64,000 nt of DNA, from contig CAUWAM010000001.1 in NCBI GenBank assembly GCA_963556825.1, positions 685 to 64,684 on the forward strand, given 5' to 3'. Origin of the DNA: an uncultured Clostridia bacterium. GTDB taxonomy: Bacteria; Bacillota; Clostridia; TANB77; CAG-508. Made by a program: the position numbers and the translations under genes. Within the stretch, counting starts at the first letter, position 1, and each line of letters begins with the position of its first letter. A model generated the notes under the pieces. That model searched no databases, was not told where the DNA came from, and saw only the letters and a list, made by a program, of their open reading frames with translations. Below are positions 41,503 to 51,539 of the stretch, piece after piece.

Positions 41503-42723
41503 TTATTTATTTTCTTTTTTATTAGTTGTTGCTATTTTTTGTTTTTTGTTTTCTTCATTTTTAGAATTTTTAGGAAGTAAAGTCATAACTAAAATTCCTA
41601 AACCTAAAATAGTTATAACAAATGATATAATTGAACCAACAAAAGGTAAAGCTCTTAATACCCAAACTATAATTCCAGTAACAACCAACATTCCAAAAAT
41701 TCCAGAATTTGCATTAATATTCAATTTAGCACAAAGGTAATTATTTGCAGTAATTGTAAATAATGCTTTAGAAATCACAAGTGCTAAAATATATAAAGCA
41801 ATCAATAATAAAGCAACACTACTTGTTAATTGTAAAAGGATTAGCACAATAGAAATAACAGGAATTACAACTAATGTAAGTAAGCCAAAACCTAAAACTT
41901 TCCAAGAAATTTTTCCAACATAATTATTAGTTGATTTTAAGAATTTAGGGGCAATCCATAAGCAAACTAGCCAAATAATTAAGATAAATGCAAGAAATGC
42001 ACCTAAATTTAAAATATAGTTTGCAATAATAGTGCCTACATTCATATTTTTAAGATTTGAATTTATTTCATTAAATTTAACTTCTCCTAAAACAATATCA
42101 TCAGAAATATTAATTTTTTCAGCAGAAGAATATTCTAAATTACCATAAATAACACCTTTTTTGGATTGTTCTGAATCATTATTTTCTGTATTAAAATTAA
42201 TGTCATTAGCGCTTACAAAAGCGTTTCTACCAATAGTACCATTAATATTTAAAGTTTGGCATAAAGTTTTTAAATCTCTATAAACAAATCCATTAGAAAT
42301 ATTCAAATTTTGCGAAAAGGCAAAAACATCATATGCAACACCTTTTATAGTAATAGATTGTGCACAAGTAAAAATATTATTAAAAATATAACCTTCTTTT
42401 TCAATAACAACATCTTTTGCTAAAATAAAAGCATCTCCGCCTATTTGAGAATTGATAGTAACTTTATTAGCTATAATAAAAACATTACCATCAACAATAT
42501 AATCAATATTTACTTCATCTTCGCAAAGATATAAATCAGACTTTTTAAAAGAATCGTTTTTTTGTTCTTCTTGATTAATATTATCAACAACTTGATTTTC
42601 TACAGAATTAGTTTCGTTAGTTATTTCACTATTAGATTCATTGTCAGCTAAAACAAATGAAGATGAAAAAAGTAAAACTAATACAAGAAAAATTGTAAGA
42701 AATTTTGATTTTTTTCTTAACAT
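41503..42723 (-). CDS. membrane protein: signal peptide, bactofilin-like (polymer-forming) beta-helical repeats, C-terminal multi-TM domain
   Basis: Signal peptide MLRKKSKFLTIFLVLVLLFSSSFVLA, an Asn/Glu-rich spacer, repeated (G)xVxIxxxV motifs, then about 5 TM helices and a Lys-rich tail; 406 aa. Confidence 0.45.
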   Translation of the reverse strand: MLRKKSKFLTIFLVLVLLFSSSFVLADNESNSEITNETNSVENQVVDNINQEEQKNDSFKKSDLYLCEDEVNIDYIVDGNVFIIANKVTINSQIGGDAFILAKDVVIEKEGYIFNNIFTCAQSITIKGVAYDVFAFSQNLNISNGFVYRDLKTLCQTLNINGTIGRNAFVSANDINFNTENNDSEQSKKGVIYGNLEYSSAEKINISDDIVLGEVKFNEINSNLKNMNVGTIIANYILNLGAFLAFILIIWLVCLWIAPKFLKSTNNYVGKISWKVLGFGLLTLVVIPVISIVLILLQLTSSVALLLIALYILALVISKALFTITANNYLCAKLNINANSGIFGMLVVTGIIVWVLRALPFVGSIISFVITILGLGILVMTLLPKNSKNEENKKQKIATTNKKENK

Positions 42724-42847
42724 AATAGACCTCCTTAATATTTATTAATATGCTAAAATAATATATCTTTACAGTAATTTTGTCAATCAATTTTTATAAA
42801 AAAGAAATAATTAGGACAGATTAAAATGTATCAAAATTCATTTAAAG

Positions 42848-42876
42848 TTGACAAAAGAATAAATAAACTATATACT
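42848..42876 (+). promoter_or_regulatory. sigma-A promoter of the SCIFF gene
   Basis: TTGACA, 17 nt spacer, TATACT, about 65 nt before the SCIFF start. Confidence 0.5.
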
Positions 42877-42945
42877 TAAAATAAGGCTATAGATTAGTCA
42901 GAAACCAAGAAACCTCAGATCTACAATTGGAGAGGAGGAAAAAAC

Positions 42946-43092
42946 ATGAAGCACATAAGAACTTTATCAGGCAAGCTCCTTAAAGACACTATGAAAAACG
43001 GTGGTTGTGGAGAATGTCAGACTTCATGCCAGTCAGCTTGCAAGACTTCTTGTACGGTTGGCAACCAACATTGCGAAAACAAAAATCAGTAA
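42946..43092 (+). CDS. scfA: SCIFF (six-cysteines-in-forty-five) radical SAM-modified peptide precursor
   Basis: 48 aa MKHIRTLSGKLLKDTMKNGGCGECQTSCQSACKTSCTVGNQHCENKNQ. The GGCGECQTSCQSACKTSCTV core is the hallmark of SCIFF (TIGR03973 type). RBS ggaggagg. The ORF track's 60-aa cutoff excludes it. Confidence 0.8.
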   Translation: MKHIRTLSGKLLKDTMKNGGCGECQTSCQSACKTSCTVGNQHCENKNQ

Positions 43093-43200
43093 TATATGGT
43101 AATTGTTTTTCGAAAAAAGAAGTACTTTGGGACAGTAAAACTGTTTCAAAGTGCTTTTACTATTTATGAATTAAATTATAAAACTATTGTATTCAAAATA

Positions 43201-43227
43201 GAATAAAAAATCTAAAAATTTCTTAAA
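43201..43227 (+). repeat. 27-bp direct repeat, left copy (island boundary)
   Basis: gaataaaaaatctaaaaatttcttaaa is identical to 50024-50050. Confidence 0.6.
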
Positions 43228-43595
43228 TGACATTGTATCATATGTAGTGCTTTCATCTTTAGTTTTTTTAGAAGAAAAATTCATTTATATAAATTTGTTT
43301 AGCACAATGGTTAGCAGGAAAGATAGCAAAAAAATAATTATAAATAATTTCAAATAATATTATGAAAACAAATGATTTCTAAAAACAATAAAAATACTTG
43401 TAAAAGAAATAAAAATATAATATAAAAACATTAGAAAAAGAAAACAAAAGATAAATAAAATTATAGATAAGTTTTATGATACAGTAGAAAAATTCATTTA
43501 AAGAGAGAAGAAAAAGAGAAAAATTGGGATTTGGAAATTTAAATAGTGCAATTTAGGAAAAGAAATGTTATAATGATGTGGTAGGAGGAATCAGG

Positions 43596-44342
43596 ATGAA
43601 ACAAAATATATATGATAATGAGATATTTTCAAATGCATACGACCAAATGAGAAAGATAGATAAGGGGAAAAATGCGAATGACTTGGTTGAAATTCCTAAT
43701 TTTAGAAAGTTGATTCCAAATGTTAAAGGAAAAAAGATTCTTGATTTAGGATGTGGATATGGAGAAAACGATAAGTATTGTAGAGATTTAGGAGCAAAGG
43801 AAATTCTAGGAATTGATATTTCTGAACACATGATAAAAATTGCGAAAGAGAATAATTATGACAAAAATATAAAATATAAAGTAATGGCAATGGAAGACAT
43901 TAGTAAAATTAATGAAAAATTTGATATTGTTATTTCATCATTAGCATTTCATTATGTTAAAGACTATGAAAAATTAATAAATGATATATATAGTTTATTA
44001 AATGATGACGGAATATTAATTTTTTCAATAGACCATCCATTAAGGATAGCAAGCAAGTTTGAAAAATGGATGAAAAAAAATTATACAGAGATAAATGGAA
44101 AGTGGTTTTTACTTGTTTCAGACTATAATCGAGAGGGAGTAAGAGAAAAGGAGTGGAATGGTGTTATGGTGAAAAAGTACCACAGAAATTTTAGTAGTTT
44201 AATAAATGTCCTAGTAAATTCAGGATTTAAAATTGATAAAATTTTAGAGCCAATACCAGATGAAGAAAGTATAAAAATTATTCCAAAATATATCAATCAA
44301 TTTGATAGACCATATTTTTTATTTATAAGAGCTAAAAAGTAG
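43596..44342 (+). CDS. class I SAM-dependent methyltransferase
   Basis: Motif I ILDLGCGYGEN and post-I D(I) acidic residues (Methyltransf_11/25-like). The ATG is 7 nt after GGAGG. The track start is a GTG 6 codons upstream. Confidence 0.7.
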   Translation: MKQNIYDNEIFSNAYDQMRKIDKGKNANDLVEIPNFRKLIPNVKGKKILDLGCGYGENDKYCRDLGAKEILGIDISEHMIKIAKENNYDKNIKYKVMAMEDISKINEKFDIVISSLAFHYVKDYEKLINDIYSLLNDDGILIFSIDHPLRIASKFEKWMKKNYTEINGKWFLLVSDYNREGVREKEWNGVMVKKYHRNFSSLINVLVNSGFKIDKILEPIPDEESIKIIPKYINQFDRPYFLFIRAKK

Positions 44343-44392
44343 CATGGAACAAATATAAATTCCATGCTACTTTTATAGAAAATAGTTATTTT

Positions 44393-44971
44393 CTAATAAT
44401 AAATAGGTTTCAATGCAGTGAGATTGTAGTCAATTTCAAATAATGCTGTGTTTGCAGGTTGCTTAGCATTTTTATATTGAGTTTCATAGATATATTTAAT
44501 GAACTCATTTCTATATTTCAAATAATATGAAATAATACGAAGTGTACCACCATGAGCAACAATTAACACATTTTCATTTTTTGAAAACTGTTCATCAAAA
44601 AAATTTTTGATTCTAAAATAAACATCTTCTGTTGATTCAGCGTTAAAAAAAGAGGGCGTAGAATTATAGAGATCCCATTCTTCTTGCAAAATTTCAGGAA
44701 TAAATCTGCCTTCTAGAGTCCCATAATCAACACTTCTAAGTCGAGAATCTAAAATAACATCTTTTGATAAATACTTATTGATGATTTGCGTAGTTTGAAT
44801 TGCACGGAGCAAATCAGAAGATATTATTTTATCAAAATTGAGCTTTTCTATTTTCGTTCTAGCAATATCAGCTTCTTTCCGTCCGTTTTCATTAATTGGA
44901 ATTGGATTATGTCCCTGTAATTGCTTAGACATATTCCAGTCAGTTTGACCATGTCTTACAATATAAATCAT
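44393..44971 (-). CDS. histidine phosphatase family protein (phosphoglycerate mutase/CobC-like)
   Basis: MIYIVRHGQTDWN.. RHG catalytic motif and a second His in ..LIVAHGGTLR... RBS ggaggt. Confidence 0.7.
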   Translation of the reverse strand: MIYIVRHGQTDWNMSKQLQGHNPIPINENGRKEADIARTKIEKLNFDKIISSDLLRAIQTTQIINKYLSKDVILDSRLRSVDYGTLEGRFIPEILQEEWDLYNSTPSFFNAESTEDVYFRIKNFFDEQFSKNENVLIVAHGGTLRIISYYLKYRNEFIKYIYETQYKNAKQPANTALFEIDYNLTALKPIYY

Positions 44972-45032
44972 ATAATTACCTCCGTTCATATAAAGAAACC
45001 TACTAAAAATAAACTAAATTCATACATTAAAT

Positions 45033-45087
45033 TTTATCACATTATGTAAAATTAGTCAATCATTGACATAAAATAAAAATTGTGATA
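45033..45087. promoter_or_regulatory. nested palindrome (candidate operator) in the divergent promoter region
   Basis: TTATCACA..(13)..GTCAATcATTGAC..(13)..TGTGATAA. The outer 8-bp inverted repeats flank a perfect 6-1-6 palindrome. It overlaps the putative NUDIX promoter (TTGACA-17-TAAATT). Confidence 0.3.
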
Positions 45088-45115
45088 AATTAAAAAAACG
45101 TAGGAGGAAAATGTA

Positions 45116-45661
45116 ATGGAATGCATAATAAAGATAAACGATAAAGATATAGGAGAAGAAATCTATAAAATAAATGAACCAAATATAAGAAAAGCAGTTC
45201 GCACAATTTTATTTAATGAAAAAGGTGAAATAGCAATACTACATAAAAAAAACAAAAATGAATATAAACTTGTTGGGGGCGGCATTGAAGAGAACGAAGA
45301 TATGGAAGAGGCGCTAAGAAGAGAAGTAAACGAAGAAGCAGGATGTGAAATAAAAGATATAGTGGAACTAGGTTATGTAGAGGAATTAAGAACTGTAAAT
45401 AATTTTATGCAAATATCATATGTTTTTATTTCAAAGGTTAAAATAGATAAAAAACAACTGAACTTAACTAAACAAGAACAAGATGAGGGAGCTGAAATAT
45501 GTTGGCTATTACCTGAAATTGCTCTAAAAAGGATAAAAGAATGTTATGATAAATTAAATCCATCTAAATACAGTAACTTATATAATTCAAAAATGGTTAT
45601 AAAAAGAGATGAACTTATATTAGAATATTATTTAAAAAAAAATGAAAGAACCACAATATAA
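45116..45661 (+). CDS. NUDIX hydrolase
   Basis: Perfect Nudix box G-GIEEN-E-DMEEALR-RE-V-N-EE-A-G-C (GX5EX7REUXEEXGU); 181 aa; RBS aggagg. Confidence 0.8.
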   Translation: MECIIKINDKDIGEEIYKINEPNIRKAVRTILFNEKGEIAILHKKNKNEYKLVGGGIEENEDMEEALRREVNEEAGCEIKDIVELGYVEELRTVNNFMQISYVFISKVKIDKKQLNLTKQEQDEGAEICWLLPEIALKRIKECYDKLNPSKYSNLYNSKMVIKRDELILEYYLKKNERTTI

Positions 45662-45694
45662 TGGTTCTTCATTTTTTCGGTAGCAATGATAAAA

Positions 45695-46546
45695 TTAATT
45701 ACAATGATCCTTTTCGTAAATCTCTTTGATATTGAGATTGTCTGTTAACATATTTCCATAATTAACATCCTCTGTTTCAGCTCCAATCATTCTATACAAA
45801 TCTCCATGAGGAGATACCATAAGACGTGTAGCTAATTTTGAAGGCATTCTACCATCAATTTTGAGATTAGGAAACATTTTCTGTAACTGAGCAACCTTAG
45901 CGAAAAATTCTTCATCAGTAATATCAAAGCGATTTTTGTTAGGAACAGCTCCTCTTCCACTTGCGGAATTAAAGCGTCTTAGTTTCCAATGGTCAACTCC
46001 AAGTTCATTTAAGAGTGAACCAAGTTCTTCAAGATAATCGATATTTTCTTTGTGAACACAAGTGTTAATAAGAACACCGATGTTTCCTGCTTTTTTGACC
46101 ATTTTGATACGAGAGATGATGGTGTCACGATGACACTTTGTGCAGCGAATTTTTTCATTCAATTCGTCATTTGCAGATTCAAAAGGAAATGCAATAGAGT
46201 TTAAGTGATTTTTAATTTTTCCAAATGTTTCCTCTGTAAGAAGAATACCATTTGTACTAAGTCGTGTATCAAGACCTCTATTGTATGCATCGATAATCAA
46301 ATCAGGCAAATGGGGAATCAATAATGGCTCGCCACCAATGTAACGCATCTTGGTTAAACCAGTTTCGATTAACTGATTTTGTACCTTGAAGTGTCCTTCT
46401 CTTGTTGTTATTTCACTCCGTTTGTTAGGACTGATGCAGTAACCACATCTTTCCTGACAAGAATGGGTAATAATCCAAGAGATAATTACTTCGCCAACAT
46501 GATTGGGATCTTCGATAGTATAATGCTTTTTTTCATTACTATTCAT
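45695..46546 (-). CDS. radical SAM enzyme, viperin/MoaA-like core, no SPASM domain
   Basis: CxxxCxxC in ITHSCQERCGYCISP, a GGE motif (YIGGEPLL) and STNGILL. Visibly higher GC (~35-38%) than the ~27% background. RBS ggaggtg. Several blocks align with viperin by eye: TRQCNYKCGFC, SGGEPFL, SNGSLI. Confidence 0.7.
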   Translation of the reverse strand: MNSNEKKHYTIEDPNHVGEVIISWIITHSCQERCGYCISPNKRSEITTREGHFKVQNQLIETGLTKMRYIGGEPLLIPHLPDLIIDAYNRGLDTRLSTNGILLTEETFGKIKNHLNSIAFPFESANDELNEKIRCTKCHRDTIISRIKMVKKAGNIGVLINTCVHKENIDYLEELGSLLNELGVDHWKLRRFNSASGRGAVPNKNRFDITDEEFFAKVAQLQKMFPNLKIDGRMPSKLATRLMVSPHGDLYRMIGAETEDVNYGNMLTDNLNIKEIYEKDHCN

Positions 46547-46658
46547 AATTAGCACCTCCATAAAGTCTTATTGATAGGTAAAAAAACATTTATCGTTACC
46601 GAACTAACTATATTATATCAACAAAAAGAAATTATGTCAACAAAACGGTCGAAAACTG

Positions 46659-46687
46659 TTGAAATAATTGGAAAAAAGTTGTATAAT
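46659..46687 (+). promoter_or_regulatory. sigma-A promoter for the oxidoreductase-MTase-phosphatase operon
   Basis: TTGAAA, 17 nt spacer, tgtTATAAT (extended -10). An upstream inverted repeat caacaaaacggtcgaaaactgttg is also present. Confidence 0.5.
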
Positions 46688-46722
46688 TAGAGAGAATTGT
46701 TATAAAAAAATGGAGGATTTCT

Positions 46723-48171
46723 ATGGGAACACCAAATATCATGTTGATTGGGTGCGGACCTCATGCAAAAAGAGTATATGTTCCTAAATTAAAAGAGGTT
46801 GAAAATGAGTTTAGAATAAAACTTAAAGCAGTTGTAGAATTAGAAGAAAAAGAGGAAGATGTAAAAAAATTTATCTCAAATTACTTTGAAAATATTGAAT
46901 ACATTTTTATTGAAAAATTTGAATCTAAATACAGACAAAATTTACCAAAGGAGATTGAAAGTAGATTAGATAATATTGTAAAAAAGGAAAACATTAACTC
47001 TGTTATAATTGCAACAGATCCATTAAATCATATGCAATATGCACTATGGGCTTTAAAAAACAAACTGCATATTTTAATGGATAAGCCTATTTCTACATAC
47101 GATAATATTTCTAATAATGTTGAGCAAGCAGAACAATTAAAAAGAGATTATGAATTATTGGTAAAAAATTATTCAAGTAATCAAGCATTTATTGTAAATG
47201 CTCAAAGGAGATTTTTACCGCAATTTCAAATTGTTCAAGATTTAGTAAATGAAATTGCAAGCAAATATGGAATGCCAATTACATCAATACAAAGTACACA
47301 CAGTGATGGTCAATGGAGATTACCAGATGAGGTTTTAAAGTTAAGGTATCATCCATTATTAGGTTGGGGAAAAGTTTCACATAGTGGATATCATTTTATA
47401 GATATGGCATCAAAAATGGTAAAAGATTCATTTAAAGAAGCGAACAAAACATTTGATGAAATATCAGTGTTTACAAAATTTATTCGACCATCAGGAGTTT
47501 TATTACAACAAAATCAAAAAGATTTGAAAACAATTTTTGGAGAAGAATATTTAAAAATTGATTCTAGGACTGATGATGAACTAATTAAATTATATAAAGA
47601 AAAAAATGAGGCTGAGGTTGATGCAAATTCAATTATTTCATTATCATATGAAGGCATTACTGTTACAAATATTACATTGAATTTAATGCATAATGGTTTT
47701 TCTCGTCGTTCTTGGTTGAATGCCAATATGAAAGACTTATATAAAGGAAATGGTAGAGTAAGACATGAATATCATAATATAGAACAAGGTTGTTTACAAA
47801 ATATTCAAATACATTCATATCAGTCTAAAGATAAACATGGTATTAATAAAGAAAGTGATTTTGAACTAGGTGGAAACAATCATTATGATATATATGTTTT
47901 TAGAAATAGTGGAATAACTGGTGGTGAGACTATAAAAGTAATCAGAGGAATAGATATTGCAGAAAAATATTCATTAGATAAGACAAAAATAATGAATGAA
48001 CTGGCTAGACACGAAGCATTAAAGCAATTTTTAGAGGTTGTGATAGGCAAGAGAAAACCTATGGAGACAAAGTCAAATATTCTAGATCACAAGATGTCTG
48101 TTGAGATAATGTCACTAATTTATAAATCAGGCACAAGTGAAAATGAAATAAAAGAAAAATATCAAGATTAA
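46723..48171 (+). CDS. Gfo/Idh/MocA-like NAD(P)-binding oxidoreductase, unusually long (482 aa)
   Basis: N-terminal Rossmann motif IMLIGCGPHAKRVYVPKL is typical of the Gfo/Idh/MocA family. The C-terminal ~150 aa are unassigned. Confidence 0.55.
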   Translation: MGTPNIMLIGCGPHAKRVYVPKLKEVENEFRIKLKAVVELEEKEEDVKKFISNYFENIEYIFIEKFESKYRQNLPKEIESRLDNIVKKENINSVIIATDPLNHMQYALWALKNKLHILMDKPISTYDNISNNVEQAEQLKRDYELLVKNYSSNQAFIVNAQRRFLPQFQIVQDLVNEIASKYGMPITSIQSTHSDGQWRLPDEVLKLRYHPLLGWGKVSHSGYHFIDMASKMVKDSFKEANKTFDEISVFTKFIRPSGVLLQQNQKDLKTIFGEEYLKIDSRTDDELIKLYKEKNEAEVDANSIISLSYEGITVTNITLNLMHNGFSRRSWLNANMKDLYKGNGRVRHEYHNIEQGCLQNIQIHSYQSKDKHGINKESDFELGGNNHYDIYVFRNSGITGGETIKVIRGIDIAEKYSLDKTKIMNELARHEALKQFLEVVIGKRKPMETKSNILDHKMSVEIMSLIYKSGTSENEIKEKYQD

Positions 48172-48181
48172 TGAGGTATAT

Positions 48182-48856
48182 ATGGAGAATAAAGATAATC
48201 AATGGAATAAATTATATGAAAATTATATAAATAAAGAATTTAAAAATTGGGATGAATATTTTAAAACAAAAATGAAATTAAAAAAGAAATTTTTACATCA
48301 GGTATTAAAATATTATGATGGAAAAAAGCCAGTTTTGGAATGTGGAGCTGGAACAGGTAAATTTTCTGCTTATCTTGCTTCGAAAGGTGTAAAAGCATAT
48401 GCAATGGATTTAGAACAAGCGATGGTTGAACAAACAAGAGAATTATCCAAACAAGTAAGTCCTGAAAATGAGGTTAATGTTTTTCAGGGAGATATTAGAA
48501 ATATACCATTTGAAAATAAATTTTTTTCAGTAACACATAGTAGTGGGGTTATGGAACATTATAGTGATGAAGAAATAGTTGAGATAATAAATGAACAATT
48601 AAGAGTTTCTGACATTTGCATGTTTAGTGTACCAACTCCTTATTTTGAGAAAAAAATGCTTGGAAACGAAAGATTTATGAAACGAAACAAGTGGAGAACA
48701 ATAATAGATAAAAGTAATGCAGAGATAATTAAAGAAACAGGATATCATTATAAAACATTATGGAATAGAGTTATTGACATATGTAAAAAACCATCAAGAA
48801 TATTAAAACCAATAGCATTATATGTGTTTGTATTAAAAGAAAAGGAGGAAAAATAA
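48182..48856 (+). CDS. class I SAM-dependent methyltransferase
   Basis: Motif I VLECGAGTGKFSAYLA, AYAMDLEQ; 224 aa. Confidence 0.7.
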   Translation: MENKDNQWNKLYENYINKEFKNWDEYFKTKMKLKKKFLHQVLKYYDGKKPVLECGAGTGKFSAYLASKGVKAYAMDLEQAMVEQTRELSKQVSPENEVNVFQGDIRNIPFENKFFSVTHSSGVMEHYSDEEIVEIINEQLRVSDICMFSVPTPYFEKKMLGNERFMKRNKWRTIIDKSNAEIIKETGYHYKTLWNRVIDICKKPSRILKPIALYVFVLKEKEEK

Positions 48857-48857
48857 A

Positions 48858-49421
48858 ATGATTTATGTAGTAAGACATGGACAAACAAATTGGAATTTGG
48901 AAGGAAGATTTCAAGGAAGAATTGATATTCCTTTAAATGAAAAAGGAAAAAGCCAAGCAGAAAAAACAAAAGAAAAATTGGAAGATATTAAATTTGACAA
49001 AGTATTTTCAAGCCCATTAACGAGAGCATTAGAAACAGCACAAATTATTACAGATGAGCCAATTGAAATTGATGATAGAATAATCGAAAGATGTAATGGA
49101 CAACTAGAAGGCAAATTAAAAACAGAATGTGAAAATATGGTTGATTTCACAGATGAAAATGAACAAAAACTTGGAATTGAATCTTTACCAGATTTTAGAG
49201 GAAGAATAACTAGTTTCTTTGATGAATTAGGAGAGAAATATGCAGGTAAAGATGTATTAGTAGTAACTCATGCTGGAGTTAGTATTTATGTAAGATGTTA
49301 TTTTGAGGGAGAGCCAAAAGACGGAAATTATAATAATTATAAATTAAAAAATTGTGAAGTTCTTCAATATGATAATTCTAGAAAGGTAAATAAAGCAATA
49401 GAAGATGATTTTGAAAGATAA
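48858..49421 (+). CDS. histidine phosphatase family protein (paralogue of 44393-44971)
   Basis: MIYVVRHGQTNWNLEGRFQG.. and ..LVVTHAGV... It starts 2 nt after the MTase stop, which suggests operon coupling. Confidence 0.7.
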   Translation: MIYVVRHGQTNWNLEGRFQGRIDIPLNEKGKSQAEKTKEKLEDIKFDKVFSSPLTRALETAQIITDEPIEIDDRIIERCNGQLEGKLKTECENMVDFTDENEQKLGIESLPDFRGRITSFFDELGEKYAGKDVLVVTHAGVSIYVRCYFEGEPKDGNYNNYKLKNCEVLQYDNSRKVNKAIEDDFER

Positions 49422-49426
49422 AATAT

Positions 49427-49459
49427 GTAGGGGATTCTTAATTCCCTACATATTTTTTT
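49427..49459. terminator. intrinsic terminator
   Basis: tgtaggggatt-N-aattccctaca followed by T7. Confidence 0.5.
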
Positions 49460-49586
49460 CTAACCATTTATATATATCATCATCAGTAAGTTCGCCGTGT
49501 TTTAATTTTGTAATCTGTTCTTTAGCTTGTTTCTTCCAAGTGTCAAATTCTTGCTTAATTTGTTTATCTCCTTTATTCTTATTCAT
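49447..49586 (-). CDS. possible small ORF (46 aa), uncertain
   Basis: MNKNKGDKQIKQEFDTWKKQAKEQITKLKHGELTDDDIYKWLEKNM. No convincing RBS, and the stop lies inside the terminator stem. Confidence 0.2.
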
Positions 49587-50023
49587 AAAAGTAAATTTTT
49601 GAACATATAGTTTTCTATATTCAGAATATGGTGTTTTTTCTTATAATCTTTTATTGTAAGAAAGTGTAGTTATTTATCTTTGAAAGTTCTTCTAGTATTG
49701 CATAACAAATGCTAGATAAATCATTACTTTTATGAGTATTTACCATTGAAATTATTGTTGTTTTATTTTTTAATTTTTCCAATAGTTCATATTCAGATAC
49801 GTCAAGTAATTCATCATATTTATTTGAGTAACTGCCTGAAATAACAGTATCATTCTTTTATAAGATATACAGCATATCTTTCAGAATGTGTATAAGGTCT
49901 TAATTCTTCAATATCATCTATATTATATATGTAATTTACGGCATCTATCATATAAATGCAGGTTATTCTGAAAAATGATGCAATTCCAAAAGTTGCACAA
50001 GATATTGTTTTACTTAAAATTGG

Positions 50024-50050
50024 GAATAAAAAATCTAAAAATTTCTTAAA
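50024..50050 (+). repeat. 27-bp direct repeat, right copy (island boundary)
   Basis: Identical to 43201-43227. An extended ~35-bp match has 2 mismatches. Confidence 0.6.
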
Positions 50051-50129
50051 AACCTTGTAAAATAAACCCAATTGTGTTAATATAATAAATATATAAAATA
50101 AATCCAATTAAAAAGCAAAGTATATATAT

Positions 50130-50346
50130 TAAATAAAAACAGAGAAAATATCCTAGGCTGAAAGATATTTAAACAATATGTAGAAATTTCACTTTTTAGG
50201 ACTTCTTTTGAACAACAAAAGTAGAAAGAAGCGGTTGAACCGTTAAAACTATAATAAGGTTAGTTAGAAATAATAAACTAATAAATTTAGGTGGTACCAC
50301 GGAAATCCATTTCGTCCTATACAAATAGGATGATGTGGATTTTTTT
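50130..50346 (+). promoter_or_regulatory. T-box riboswitch leader (Phe specifier) for pheS-pheT
   Basis: Stem I AGAGA and distal-loop GCUGA motifs, a candidate specifier UUC-A (aaatTTCac), the T-box sequence AATTTAGGTGGTACCACGG (~50284-50302), then a terminator hairpin plus T7 ending at ~50346. Confidence 0.6.
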
Positions 50347-50480
50347 GAGACAGTTGGGACAGTCCAATTTTGTCTCATAAATTAAATCAAATATTGTCGA
50401 AAAATAAAAATAATAACAAAGTGACAAAAAATAACAAAAATAATGAGACAAAATTGGACTGTCCCAACTGTCTCAAAAGG
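50347..50480 (+). repeat. palindromic intergenic element, copy 1
   Basis: Perfect 31-bp terminal inverted repeats GAGACAGTTGGGACAGTCCAATTTTGTCTCA / TGAGACAAAATTGGACTGTCCCAACTGTCTC flank a ~68-nt A-rich loop with an inner IR TTGTCg..tGACAA. Confidence 0.7.
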
Positions 50481-50489
50481 AGAGAAAAA

Positions 50490-51539
50490 ATGAAAGAACA
50501 AATTTCAAAAATTAAAGAAACTTCAGTAGAAGAAATCAAAAAATCTGAAGATTTAAAAACTTTAAATGACATAAGAGTAAAATACTTAGGAAAAAAAGGT
50601 GAACTTACAGCAGTATTAAGAGGAATGGGAGGATTATCTCCAGAAGAAAGACCAATAATAGGGAGCTTAGTAAATGAAGTAAGAGATGAATTAGAAAAAT
50701 TAATTCAAGTAAAGGAAGAAAAATTTAAAGCAGAAGAATTAAATAAGAAATTAGAAAATGAAAAAATAGATATTACACTTCCAAGTACAAAAATAAAAAG
50801 AGGAAGTTTGCATCCAGTGAATAGAATAATTGAAGATATAGAAGATTTATTTGTATCAATGGGGTATGATGTAGTAACAGGACCAGAATTAGAAAATGAT
50901 GAGTATTGTTTTGAAAGATTAAATCTTCCAAAAGGGCATCCAGCAAGAGATATGCAAGATAGTTTCTATATAACTGATGAATATTTATTAAGAACACAAA
51001 CATCAGCAGTTCAAGCAAGAACAATGATGGCAAACACTGATAAAACACCAATCAGAATGATTACAGCAGGAAAAACATATAGAAGAGAAGATGACGCAAC
51101 ACACTCTCATCAATTTAATCAAATAGAAGGTTTAGTTATAGATAAAAAAGAAAGAAATGTTTCTTTGGCAGACTTAAAAGGAACACTAGAAGTATTTGTT
51201 AGAAAAATAATAGGAGCGAATCTAGATTTAAGATTTAGACCAAGTTATTTTCCATTTACAGAACCATCTTATGAAGTAGATGTTACATGTTTTAAATGTG
51301 GAGGAAAAGGATGTAATCTATGTAAGCAAACGGGATGGATAGAAGTTTTAGGAGCAGGTATAGTTCATCCAAATGTTTTAAAAATGAATGGATATGACCC
51401 AGAAAAATTTGGTGGATTTGCATTTGGAACAGGTATTGATAGACTTGCAATGTTTAGATACGGAATCACAGATATGAGATATTTATATACAAATGATGTC
51501 AGATTTTTAAATCAATTTGACAGAAAAGATGAAGAATGA
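50490..51539 (+). CDS. pheS: phenylalanine--tRNA ligase alpha subunit
   Basis: Class II core (..[12 protein letters not shown].., ..[13 protein letters not shown]..). RBS aaaaggagag. The track N-terminus is a translation of the repeat. Confidence 0.9.

Follow-up and report, generated by a model that had tools for sequence, protein, structure and literature searches.

A viperin-like radical SAM enzyme of a distinct clade as the probable radical step of a conserved, putatively nucleoside-tailoring cassette in uncultured gut bacteria

Viperins, including those of prokaryotes (pVips), make 3'-deoxy-3',4'-didehydro nucleoside triphosphates (ddhNTPs). These chain terminators are a rare example of an immune small molecule common to bacteria and humans, and the products of viperin chemistry are leads for antiviral nucleoside drugs. 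Typically, a viperin gene stands alone or has a kinase gene for nucleotides beside it, and defence islands are a frequent location; a broad survey of their neighbourhoods found only kinases and a few domain fusions, and CMPK2, a known viperin partner, belongs to the nucleoside monophosphate (NMP) kinase superfamily. Here we analyse a stretch of 64,000 nucleotides (the window) from contig CAUWAM010000001.1 of an uncultured Clostridia bacterium, which carries at 45695..46546 on the minus strand a gene for a viperin-like radical S-adenosylmethionine (SAM) enzyme, hereafter rSAM. Our analysis indicates that the enzyme has a viperin fold and falls into a distinct, tightly conserved clade, and that it is probably the radical step of a conserved pathway of four to seven genes rather than a stand-alone antiviral ddhNTP synthase. 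Judged from the genes that travel with it, the pathway would most likely convert a nucleotide into a deoxygenated or didehydro, methylated and dephosphorylated nucleoside.

The rSAM protein carries both hallmarks of the radical SAM superfamily, CxxxCxxC and GGE. The cluster motif ITHSCQERCGYCISP (pattern ITHSC-QER-C-GY-C) contains C30, C34 and C37, which are invariant in the family alignment, and GGE (G71-G72-E73) is present in 13 of its 14 sequences. Its cysteines are C30, C34, C37, C135, C138, C163 and C282, so that after residue 200 there is C282 alone; Pfam finds PF04055 and nothing else (68.6 bits, cutoff 29.5), with no match to PF13186 or PF13353 and no C-terminal SPASM or twitch cysteine set. 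An earlier reading made from the letters of the window (the sequence-only reading) had likewise described a single N-terminal cluster, and the six blocks that it had matched by eye to viperin all recur unchanged in the HMMER alignment to mouse viperin (5vsl). The closest known family is viperin, whether one goes by hidden Markov models (HMMs), by PDB sequences or by fold. With the NCBIfam model NF038283 (viperin_w_prok) the score is 101 bits and the match spans positions 2-245 of a 281-position profile, compared with scores of 70 for PqqE and 59 for MoaA, and the PADLOC pVip models match at 108-111 bits (E 1e-32). The best nine PDB sequence matches of the protein are all viperins, and a profile of the family run against PDB places 5vsl and 6q2p on top (E ~1e-14). 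Viperin is the best fold match as well, followed by SkfB and SuiB, and the viperin-type architecture is present, in which a partial (beta/alpha)6 barrel carries a C-terminal extension and an auxiliary cluster is absent.

Could the protein instead be MoaA-like, or some other radical SAM enzyme of cofactor biosynthesis or of peptide modification, as for ribosomally synthesised and post-translationally modified peptides (RiPPs)? With MoaA (GTP 3',8-cyclase) it has in common the N-terminal cluster and the SAM motifs (CxxxCxxC, GGEP, TNG), and its R241, at the position of viperin Y302, aligns with an Arg of the C-terminal N-R-x-R segment of MoaA; moreover, the second and third structural matches, SkfB and SuiB, would suit a peptide-modifying enzyme. 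However, MoaA models give 48-59 bits against cutoffs of 284-325 (TIGR02666, 58.7 against 284), and MoaA binds an auxiliary [4Fe-4S] cluster through three C-terminal cysteines that rSAM lacks. There is also no SPASM/twitch or RRE domain in the protein, and no gene for a precursor peptide, peptidase, exporter or MoaC/MoaB nearby. We regard such an assignment as very improbable; viperin is nearer than MoaA, NirJ or PFL-AE.

While the viperin likeness claimed by the sequence-only reading thus stands, the scores say that rSAM is not a canonical pVip. The 180-bit cutoff of NF038283 is missed by the window protein (101 bits) and by the family representative P0064 (93.8 bits), whereas the canonical pVips P0263 and P0241, found in the same search and with ~32% full-length identity to mouse viperin, reach 245.6 and 255.2 bits. 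In an exhaustive profile search of 1.84 billion representatives the family forms a single 50%-identity cluster at 488 bits, and the next full-length matches come at 212 and 159 bits, below which the scores form a continuum. A neighbour-joining tree with MoaA as outgroup, which is rough, distance-based and without support values, places the family with the proteins P0122, P0125 and P0126, in a clade that excludes mouse viperin, P0263 and P0241. These sister proteins score 99, below ~70 and 77 bits, respectively, on the viperin model, and P0125 (L031/L032:7001-7867) is a solo gene ~2 kb from a type II CRISPR-Cas9 locus. Within the family, the motifs SWIITH, GGEP, STNG, PFES, NTCVH, HWKLR-F-S-SGRGA, IDGR-PSKL-TRLM-SP and a C-terminal D-x-C-N are invariant.

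The substrate pocket differs from that of viperins at most of the positions compared. Our list of viperin contact residues was compiled from residues common to mouse viperin and the two canonical pVips and from a docking description; the mouse viperin sequence used fits in length and in its published landmark residues, and its residues 68-286 match the PDB alignment. Mouse viperin, P0263 and P0241 have the same residue at nine pocket positions: N77, H79, K120, R194, K220, N222, R245, K247 and Y302. Three of these, K120, N222 and K247 (K66, N161 and K188 in rSAM, an alignment-dependent assignment), are retained in the family, and the other six are replaced (N77S, H79I, R194G/C, K220L, R245H and Y302R, which fall at S23, I25, G/C135, L159, H186 and R241). 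Except at position 135, the replacing residues vary little or not at all from one family member to another; at the Y302 position, Tyr is retained even in the sister proteins. The C-terminal P-loop segment (R347 in mouse viperin) is absent from the family, which has instead a set of extra invariant residues, R68, R134, R190, C163 and C282, of which C163, in NTCVH, shares a strand face with N161. The beta-8 loop residue that recognises the nucleobase is Asn in most prokaryotic viperins and Cys314/Lys319 in mouse (bioRxiv 10.1101/2023.09.13.557418); the family has an invariant Met253 at this loop position and Lys319 aligns with Asn or Asp, the alignment of the loop being unreliable. The pocket appears to have been rebuilt but to remain under selection. 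Arg, Lys and His are conserved at many positions where strands end, from which we infer that the substrate is still polyanionic. The sequence-only reading had named absent pocket residues as evidence that would count against a viperin, and this is in part what we see. A plain ddhNTP product, which it had also suggested, is not a safe inference with six of nine pocket residues replaced and the C-terminal P-loop missing.

What sets this family apart most clearly is its company. We took a census of 27 loci in which the sequence extends 3 kb or more to either side of the rSAM gene, counting partners within 6 kb. An ortholog of HP2, a histidine phosphatase (branch 1, RHG motif; in the window 48858..49421, plus strand, 187 aa), is present in all 27. 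The class I SAM-dependent methyltransferase MT2 (48182..48856, plus strand, 224 aa) is found in 26, and so is a Gfo/Idh/MocA-like gene of either of two types, represented in the window by GFO, a 482-aa NAD(P) oxidoreductase of the Gfo/Idh/MocA fold with a GCGPHA Rossmann motif (46723..48171, plus strand). The GFO gene, which is transcribed divergently from the rSAM gene, was missed by the sequence-only reading. The NUDIX hydrolase (45116..45661, plus strand, 181 aa, with an intact NUDIX box GGGIEENEDMEEALRREVNEEAG) is a frequent partner, in 15 of the 27 loci, while the second histidine phosphatase HP1 (44393..44971, minus strand, likely start MIYIVRHG, also with the RHG motif) and the second class I methyltransferase MT1 (43596..44342, plus strand, homologs of 248 aa) are peripheral, in 9 and 8 loci. 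In several loci partners are fused into one gene: GFO with NUDIX in L006, L022, L042 and L046, NUDIX with MT2 in L037, and GFO, NUDIX and MT2 together in L019, where the 876-aa product is confirmed by Pfam. The content of the cassette stays constant while its flanks vary, from rpe/pheST in the window to TetR/MMPL and Sua5/acc in L001-L004 and TIM and LeuRS in L005. Because the nearest relatives outside the family are solo genes, the cassette is specific to this clade.

The sequence-only reading had pointed to the NUDIX hydrolase, two His_Phos_1 proteins and two class I methyltransferases beside the rSAM gene and had proposed them as its partners. These genes are all there, with NUDIX and rSAM convergent, and by conservation and gene fusion the NUDIX, phosphatase and methyltransferase neighbours would be functional partners, a proposal that is strongly borne out, except that the near-universal ones are GFO, MT2 and HP2 and that NUDIX occurs in only about half of the loci. 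The typical viperin setting is not what we find, since GFO, MT2 and HP2 occur in 26-27 of the 27 loci and a kinase in 5. In those five loci, all without NUDIX, a thymidylate-kinase-like P-loop kinase lies directly 3' of the rSAM gene (L016:10791-11438, L018:10376-11083, L017, L036 and L049); it has the motif EGMDLAGKS and is divergent, scoring below the Pfam and NCBIfam cutoffs. Kinase and NUDIX appear mutually exclusive across the cassettes. Since this kinase belongs to the same superfamily as CMPK2, its place beside the rSAM gene points to a nucleotide substrate.

An ordinary pVip would make ddhCTP, ddhUTP or ddhGTP as an anti-phage chain terminator, and its neighbours would be unrelated to it or would recycle or detoxify the product. 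The PADLOC scores and the best matches by family, sequence and fold fit this explanation, as does the NMP kinase, the classic viperin partner, where it adjoins the gene; the patchy spread over Clostridia, Bacilli and Mollicutes with variable flanks is what one expects of an accessory gene, and the sister protein P0125 lies close to Cas9. On the other hand, rSAM stays below a cutoff that canonical pVips easily pass, the replaced positions of the pocket include K220 and Y302, and the near-obligate linkage of the partner enzymes together with their fusions argues for one pathway. Moreover, no defence genes were seen in the annotated flanks of the focal family. The family is also absent from the phage (INPHARED) and plasmid (PLSDB) collections, where tblastn gave only partial moaA/pqqE-like matches at ~29% identity; a phage or plasmid origin was rejected on the same result. 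Taken together, we consider the ordinary pVip unlikely.

A different question is whether the substrate is a nucleotide at all. If rSAM acted on an NDP-sugar, a sugar phosphate or an inositol phosphate rather than on nucleotide ribose, the cassette might make or degrade a methylated deoxy-sugar or cyclitol. The partners match no specific characterised subfamily, and their PDB sequence matches are generic, so that no substrate can be assigned from them. The GFO-like protein matches inositol 2-dehydrogenase, levoglucosan dehydrogenase and UDP-GlcNAc 3-dehydrogenase in NCBIfam, and its structural neighbours all act on hexose, inositol or NDP-hexose rings. NUDIX enzymes cleave NDP-X, the cassette NUDIX weakly matches diphosphoinositol polyphosphate phosphohydrolase, and the NTP pocket of viperin is largely replaced. 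Still, viperin remains the nearest family, with K120, N222 and K247 retained, the five loci with a thymidylate-kinase-like gene speak for a nucleotide, and the cassette is without a glycosyltransferase, a nucleotidyltransferase or a transporter. We hold a non-nucleotide substrate to be distinctly unlikely. Distant GFO-like homologs (~50% identity) in L028-L030 belong to a different conserved cluster, without rSAM, that contains a thiamine-pyrophosphate-dependent enzyme, Abhydrolase_11 and an aldehyde dehydrogenase or HMGL-like gene; type IV secretion genes are also present on L029 and L030, two of these three contigs, and the three loci gave no clue to the substrate.

How might the tailoring pathway that we favour work? 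At the level of motif and fold, the [4Fe-4S] cluster on C30, C34 and C37 would cleave SAM to give a 5'-deoxyadenosyl radical. By homology to viperin, the radical would abstract a ribose hydrogen from a phosphorylated nucleotide with loss of a neighbouring hydroxyl, in a pocket that has been rebuilt. The Gfo/Idh/MocA enzyme, to go by its fold neighbours, may then carry out a redox step on the altered ring of the sugar, at a secondary alcohol or a ketone, and MT2 may methylate the intermediate. NUDIX, where present, would remove pyrophosphate and HP2 the last phosphate, leaving a free deoxygenated or didehydro, methylated nucleoside analogue that could be antiviral or an antimetabolite.

Several points weigh against this picture. 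The steps may run in another order, and a nucleotide is the inferred substrate; the difference from viperin at six of nine substrate-contact positions makes a substrate other than an NTP possible, and the residue mapping behind that count rests on sequence alignments to mouse viperin, which are poor in the beta-8 loop region. NUDIX is absent from the close relatives L007-L009 (93-95% identity) and so is not obligatory. The loci of the census are not all independent, L001-L004 being near-identical and L021 and L044 being the same contig. The cassette genes of the window are divided between the two strands and make up at least four transcription units, any co-regulation being conjectural. Finally, the carriers are all uncultured gut metagenome-assembled genomes (MAGs) of Clostridia, Bacilli and Mollicutes or human-gut contigs.

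Two biosynthetic systems offer parallels for a radical SAM enzyme that works with such partners. In apramycin biosynthesis the radical SAM diol dehydratase AprD4, which acts on an aminoglycoside pseudodisaccharide, is paired with the NAD(P)H reductase AprD3. What our cassette would have in common with this system is a dehydrating radical SAM enzyme that works alongside a nicotinamide-dependent reductase; AprD4 is a far more distant structural match than viperin. The tunicamycin cluster contains TunB (radical SAM), TunN (NUDIX), TunG (phosphatase) and TunM (methyltransferase), and there a nucleotide is taken to a nucleoside by NUDIX and phosphatase. Our cassette is like it by enzyme set, sharing radical SAM, NUDIX, phosphatase and methyltransferase and lacking the glycosyltransferase, acyltransferase and epimerase genes of the tunicamycin cluster. 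Against this background, we put forward a more specific and tentative proposal, which we think possible but would not favour as it stands: that the retooled viperin-like enzyme and the Gfo/Idh/MocA reductase together achieve a net radical deoxygenation of the sugar ring of a nucleotide, giving a new modified nucleoside in uncultured human-gut Firmicutes and Mollicutes. Cys163 and Cys282 could serve as hydrogen or electron donors, and methylation and dephosphorylation would release a free analogue, e.g. an O-methyl nucleoside of the 3'-deoxy or didehydro kind, that would be secreted as an antimetabolite or work as the prodrug of an antiviral chain terminator.

In full-text literature searches we did not find a description of a viperin-like gene with GFO, NUDIX, methyltransferase and histidine phosphatase partners, nor is the near-constant linkage to GFO, methyltransferase and histidine phosphatase one that we found described for viperins. 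What would be new, on the gene content, is the recruitment of a viperin-like enzyme into a multi-enzyme tailoring pathway, and the product is probably a modified nucleoside not previously described. If true, this would extend viperin chemistry from a single dehydrated NTP to a tailored nucleoside, made by common uncultured bacteria of the human gut. As a corollary, since the PADLOC pVip models match the rSAM gene, HMM-based defence annotation would probably call it a solo viperin and miss the pathway around it.

The rSAM gene also stands out by composition. Its GC content is 34.9%, at the low edge of the 35-38% given in the sequence-only reading, compared with 26.9% for the window, a value that ranks within the highest 0.16% among stretches of equal length; GC at third codon positions (GC3) is 0.27, against 0.13-0.16 in its neighbours. 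In the window, where the partners are at background GC, and likewise at most loci with an ortholog, the rSAM gene has higher GC and GC3 than the rest of the cassette. In comparison with close relatives, rSAM has the highest amino-acid identity in the cassette (92-95%), while its synonymous-codon identity is equal to or below that of its neighbours (0.64-0.71 versus 0.62-0.79). Since the protein identity is the highest and the synonymous identity equal or lower, the rSAM gene has diverged together with the rest of the cassette, with purifying selection acting on it most strongly. Its raised GC belongs to the gene itself, where it may reflect constraint, and is not the mark of a recent separate acquisition; the recent horizontal acquisition that had been read from it is rejected, as the partners are at background GC, the orthologs show the same offset and the synonymous divergence equals that of the neighbours.

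In the window, the local gene order is MT1(+), HP1(-), NUDIX(+), rSAM(-), GFO(+), MT2(+), HP2(+), with the housekeeping genes prkC, rsgA and rpe upstream and a T-box leader, pheS and pheT downstream. The longest rSAM open reading frame (ORF) spans 45695-46561 on the minus strand and would encode 288 aa. However, a GGAGG Shine-Dalgarno sequence lies 7 nt 5' of a second, internal ATG at 46546 and homologs are mostly 283 aa long, so that the true product is likely the 283-aa protein of 45695-46546, as the sequence-only reading had it. The rSAM and NUDIX genes converge across a 33-bp gap, where a bidirectional terminator-like hairpin is found at 45645..45670. The rSAM and GFO genes diverge, and the 176-bp spacer between their start codons holds back-to-back near-consensus promoters: for rSAM, a site at 46612..46640 on the minus strand with TTGACA, 17 nt and TATAAT plus extended TG (12/12), and for the GFO-MT2-HP2 unit a site at 46659..46687 on the plus strand (11/12), both promoter-like by consensus match only. 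A terminator-like hairpin follows HP2 at 49430..49447 on the plus strand.

Among the variants, two ORFs of 90 and 115 aa take the place of an intact MT1 gene in L004:10208-10973, and since the cassette there is otherwise identical, this suggests that MT1 is dispensable. A complete cassette occurs in a MAG labelled Candidatus Woesebacteria (L017, DAONDY010000003.1; P0359), reflecting either transfer into the candidate phyla radiation (CPR) or an error of binning or labelling. The second-type GFO-like gene of several loci, among them L006, L012, L014, L020 and L022, shares its first few bases with a bona fide gene for acetate kinase (ackA; TIGR00016, 401 bits), which may mean translational coupling between the two or lineage synteny. 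The RNA polymerase recycling motor HelD (NF041464, 452 bits) is encoded in the cassette neighbourhood of L006, L012, L013, L015, L020, L024 and L038 and directly abuts the rSAM gene in L006, L012, L013 and L020, an adjacency that would be intriguing if the cassette product stalls RNA polymerase and that may be synteny. As both ackA and HelD score as bona fide housekeeping genes, synteny is the probable reason for their presence beside these variant cassettes. Just upstream of the cassette in L020 (6662-7939), a 425-aa NADAR and DHH fusion protein is encoded.

As for RNA elements, an Rfam gathering scan of the whole window and an E-value scan of 42500-50500 gave only the pheS T-box and a tRNA, and no riboswitch or leader for the cassette. 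The T-box leader, at 50098-50322 on the plus strand (100 bits, gathering score 93), lies 5' of pheS/pheT and is part of the downstream housekeeping operon, not of the cassette. Between a membrane-protein gene and MT1, a stretch of ~850 bp (42724-43577) has no ORF of at least 60 aa and no Rfam match; within it lies a terminator-like hairpin with a 19-bp stem at 43118-43158.

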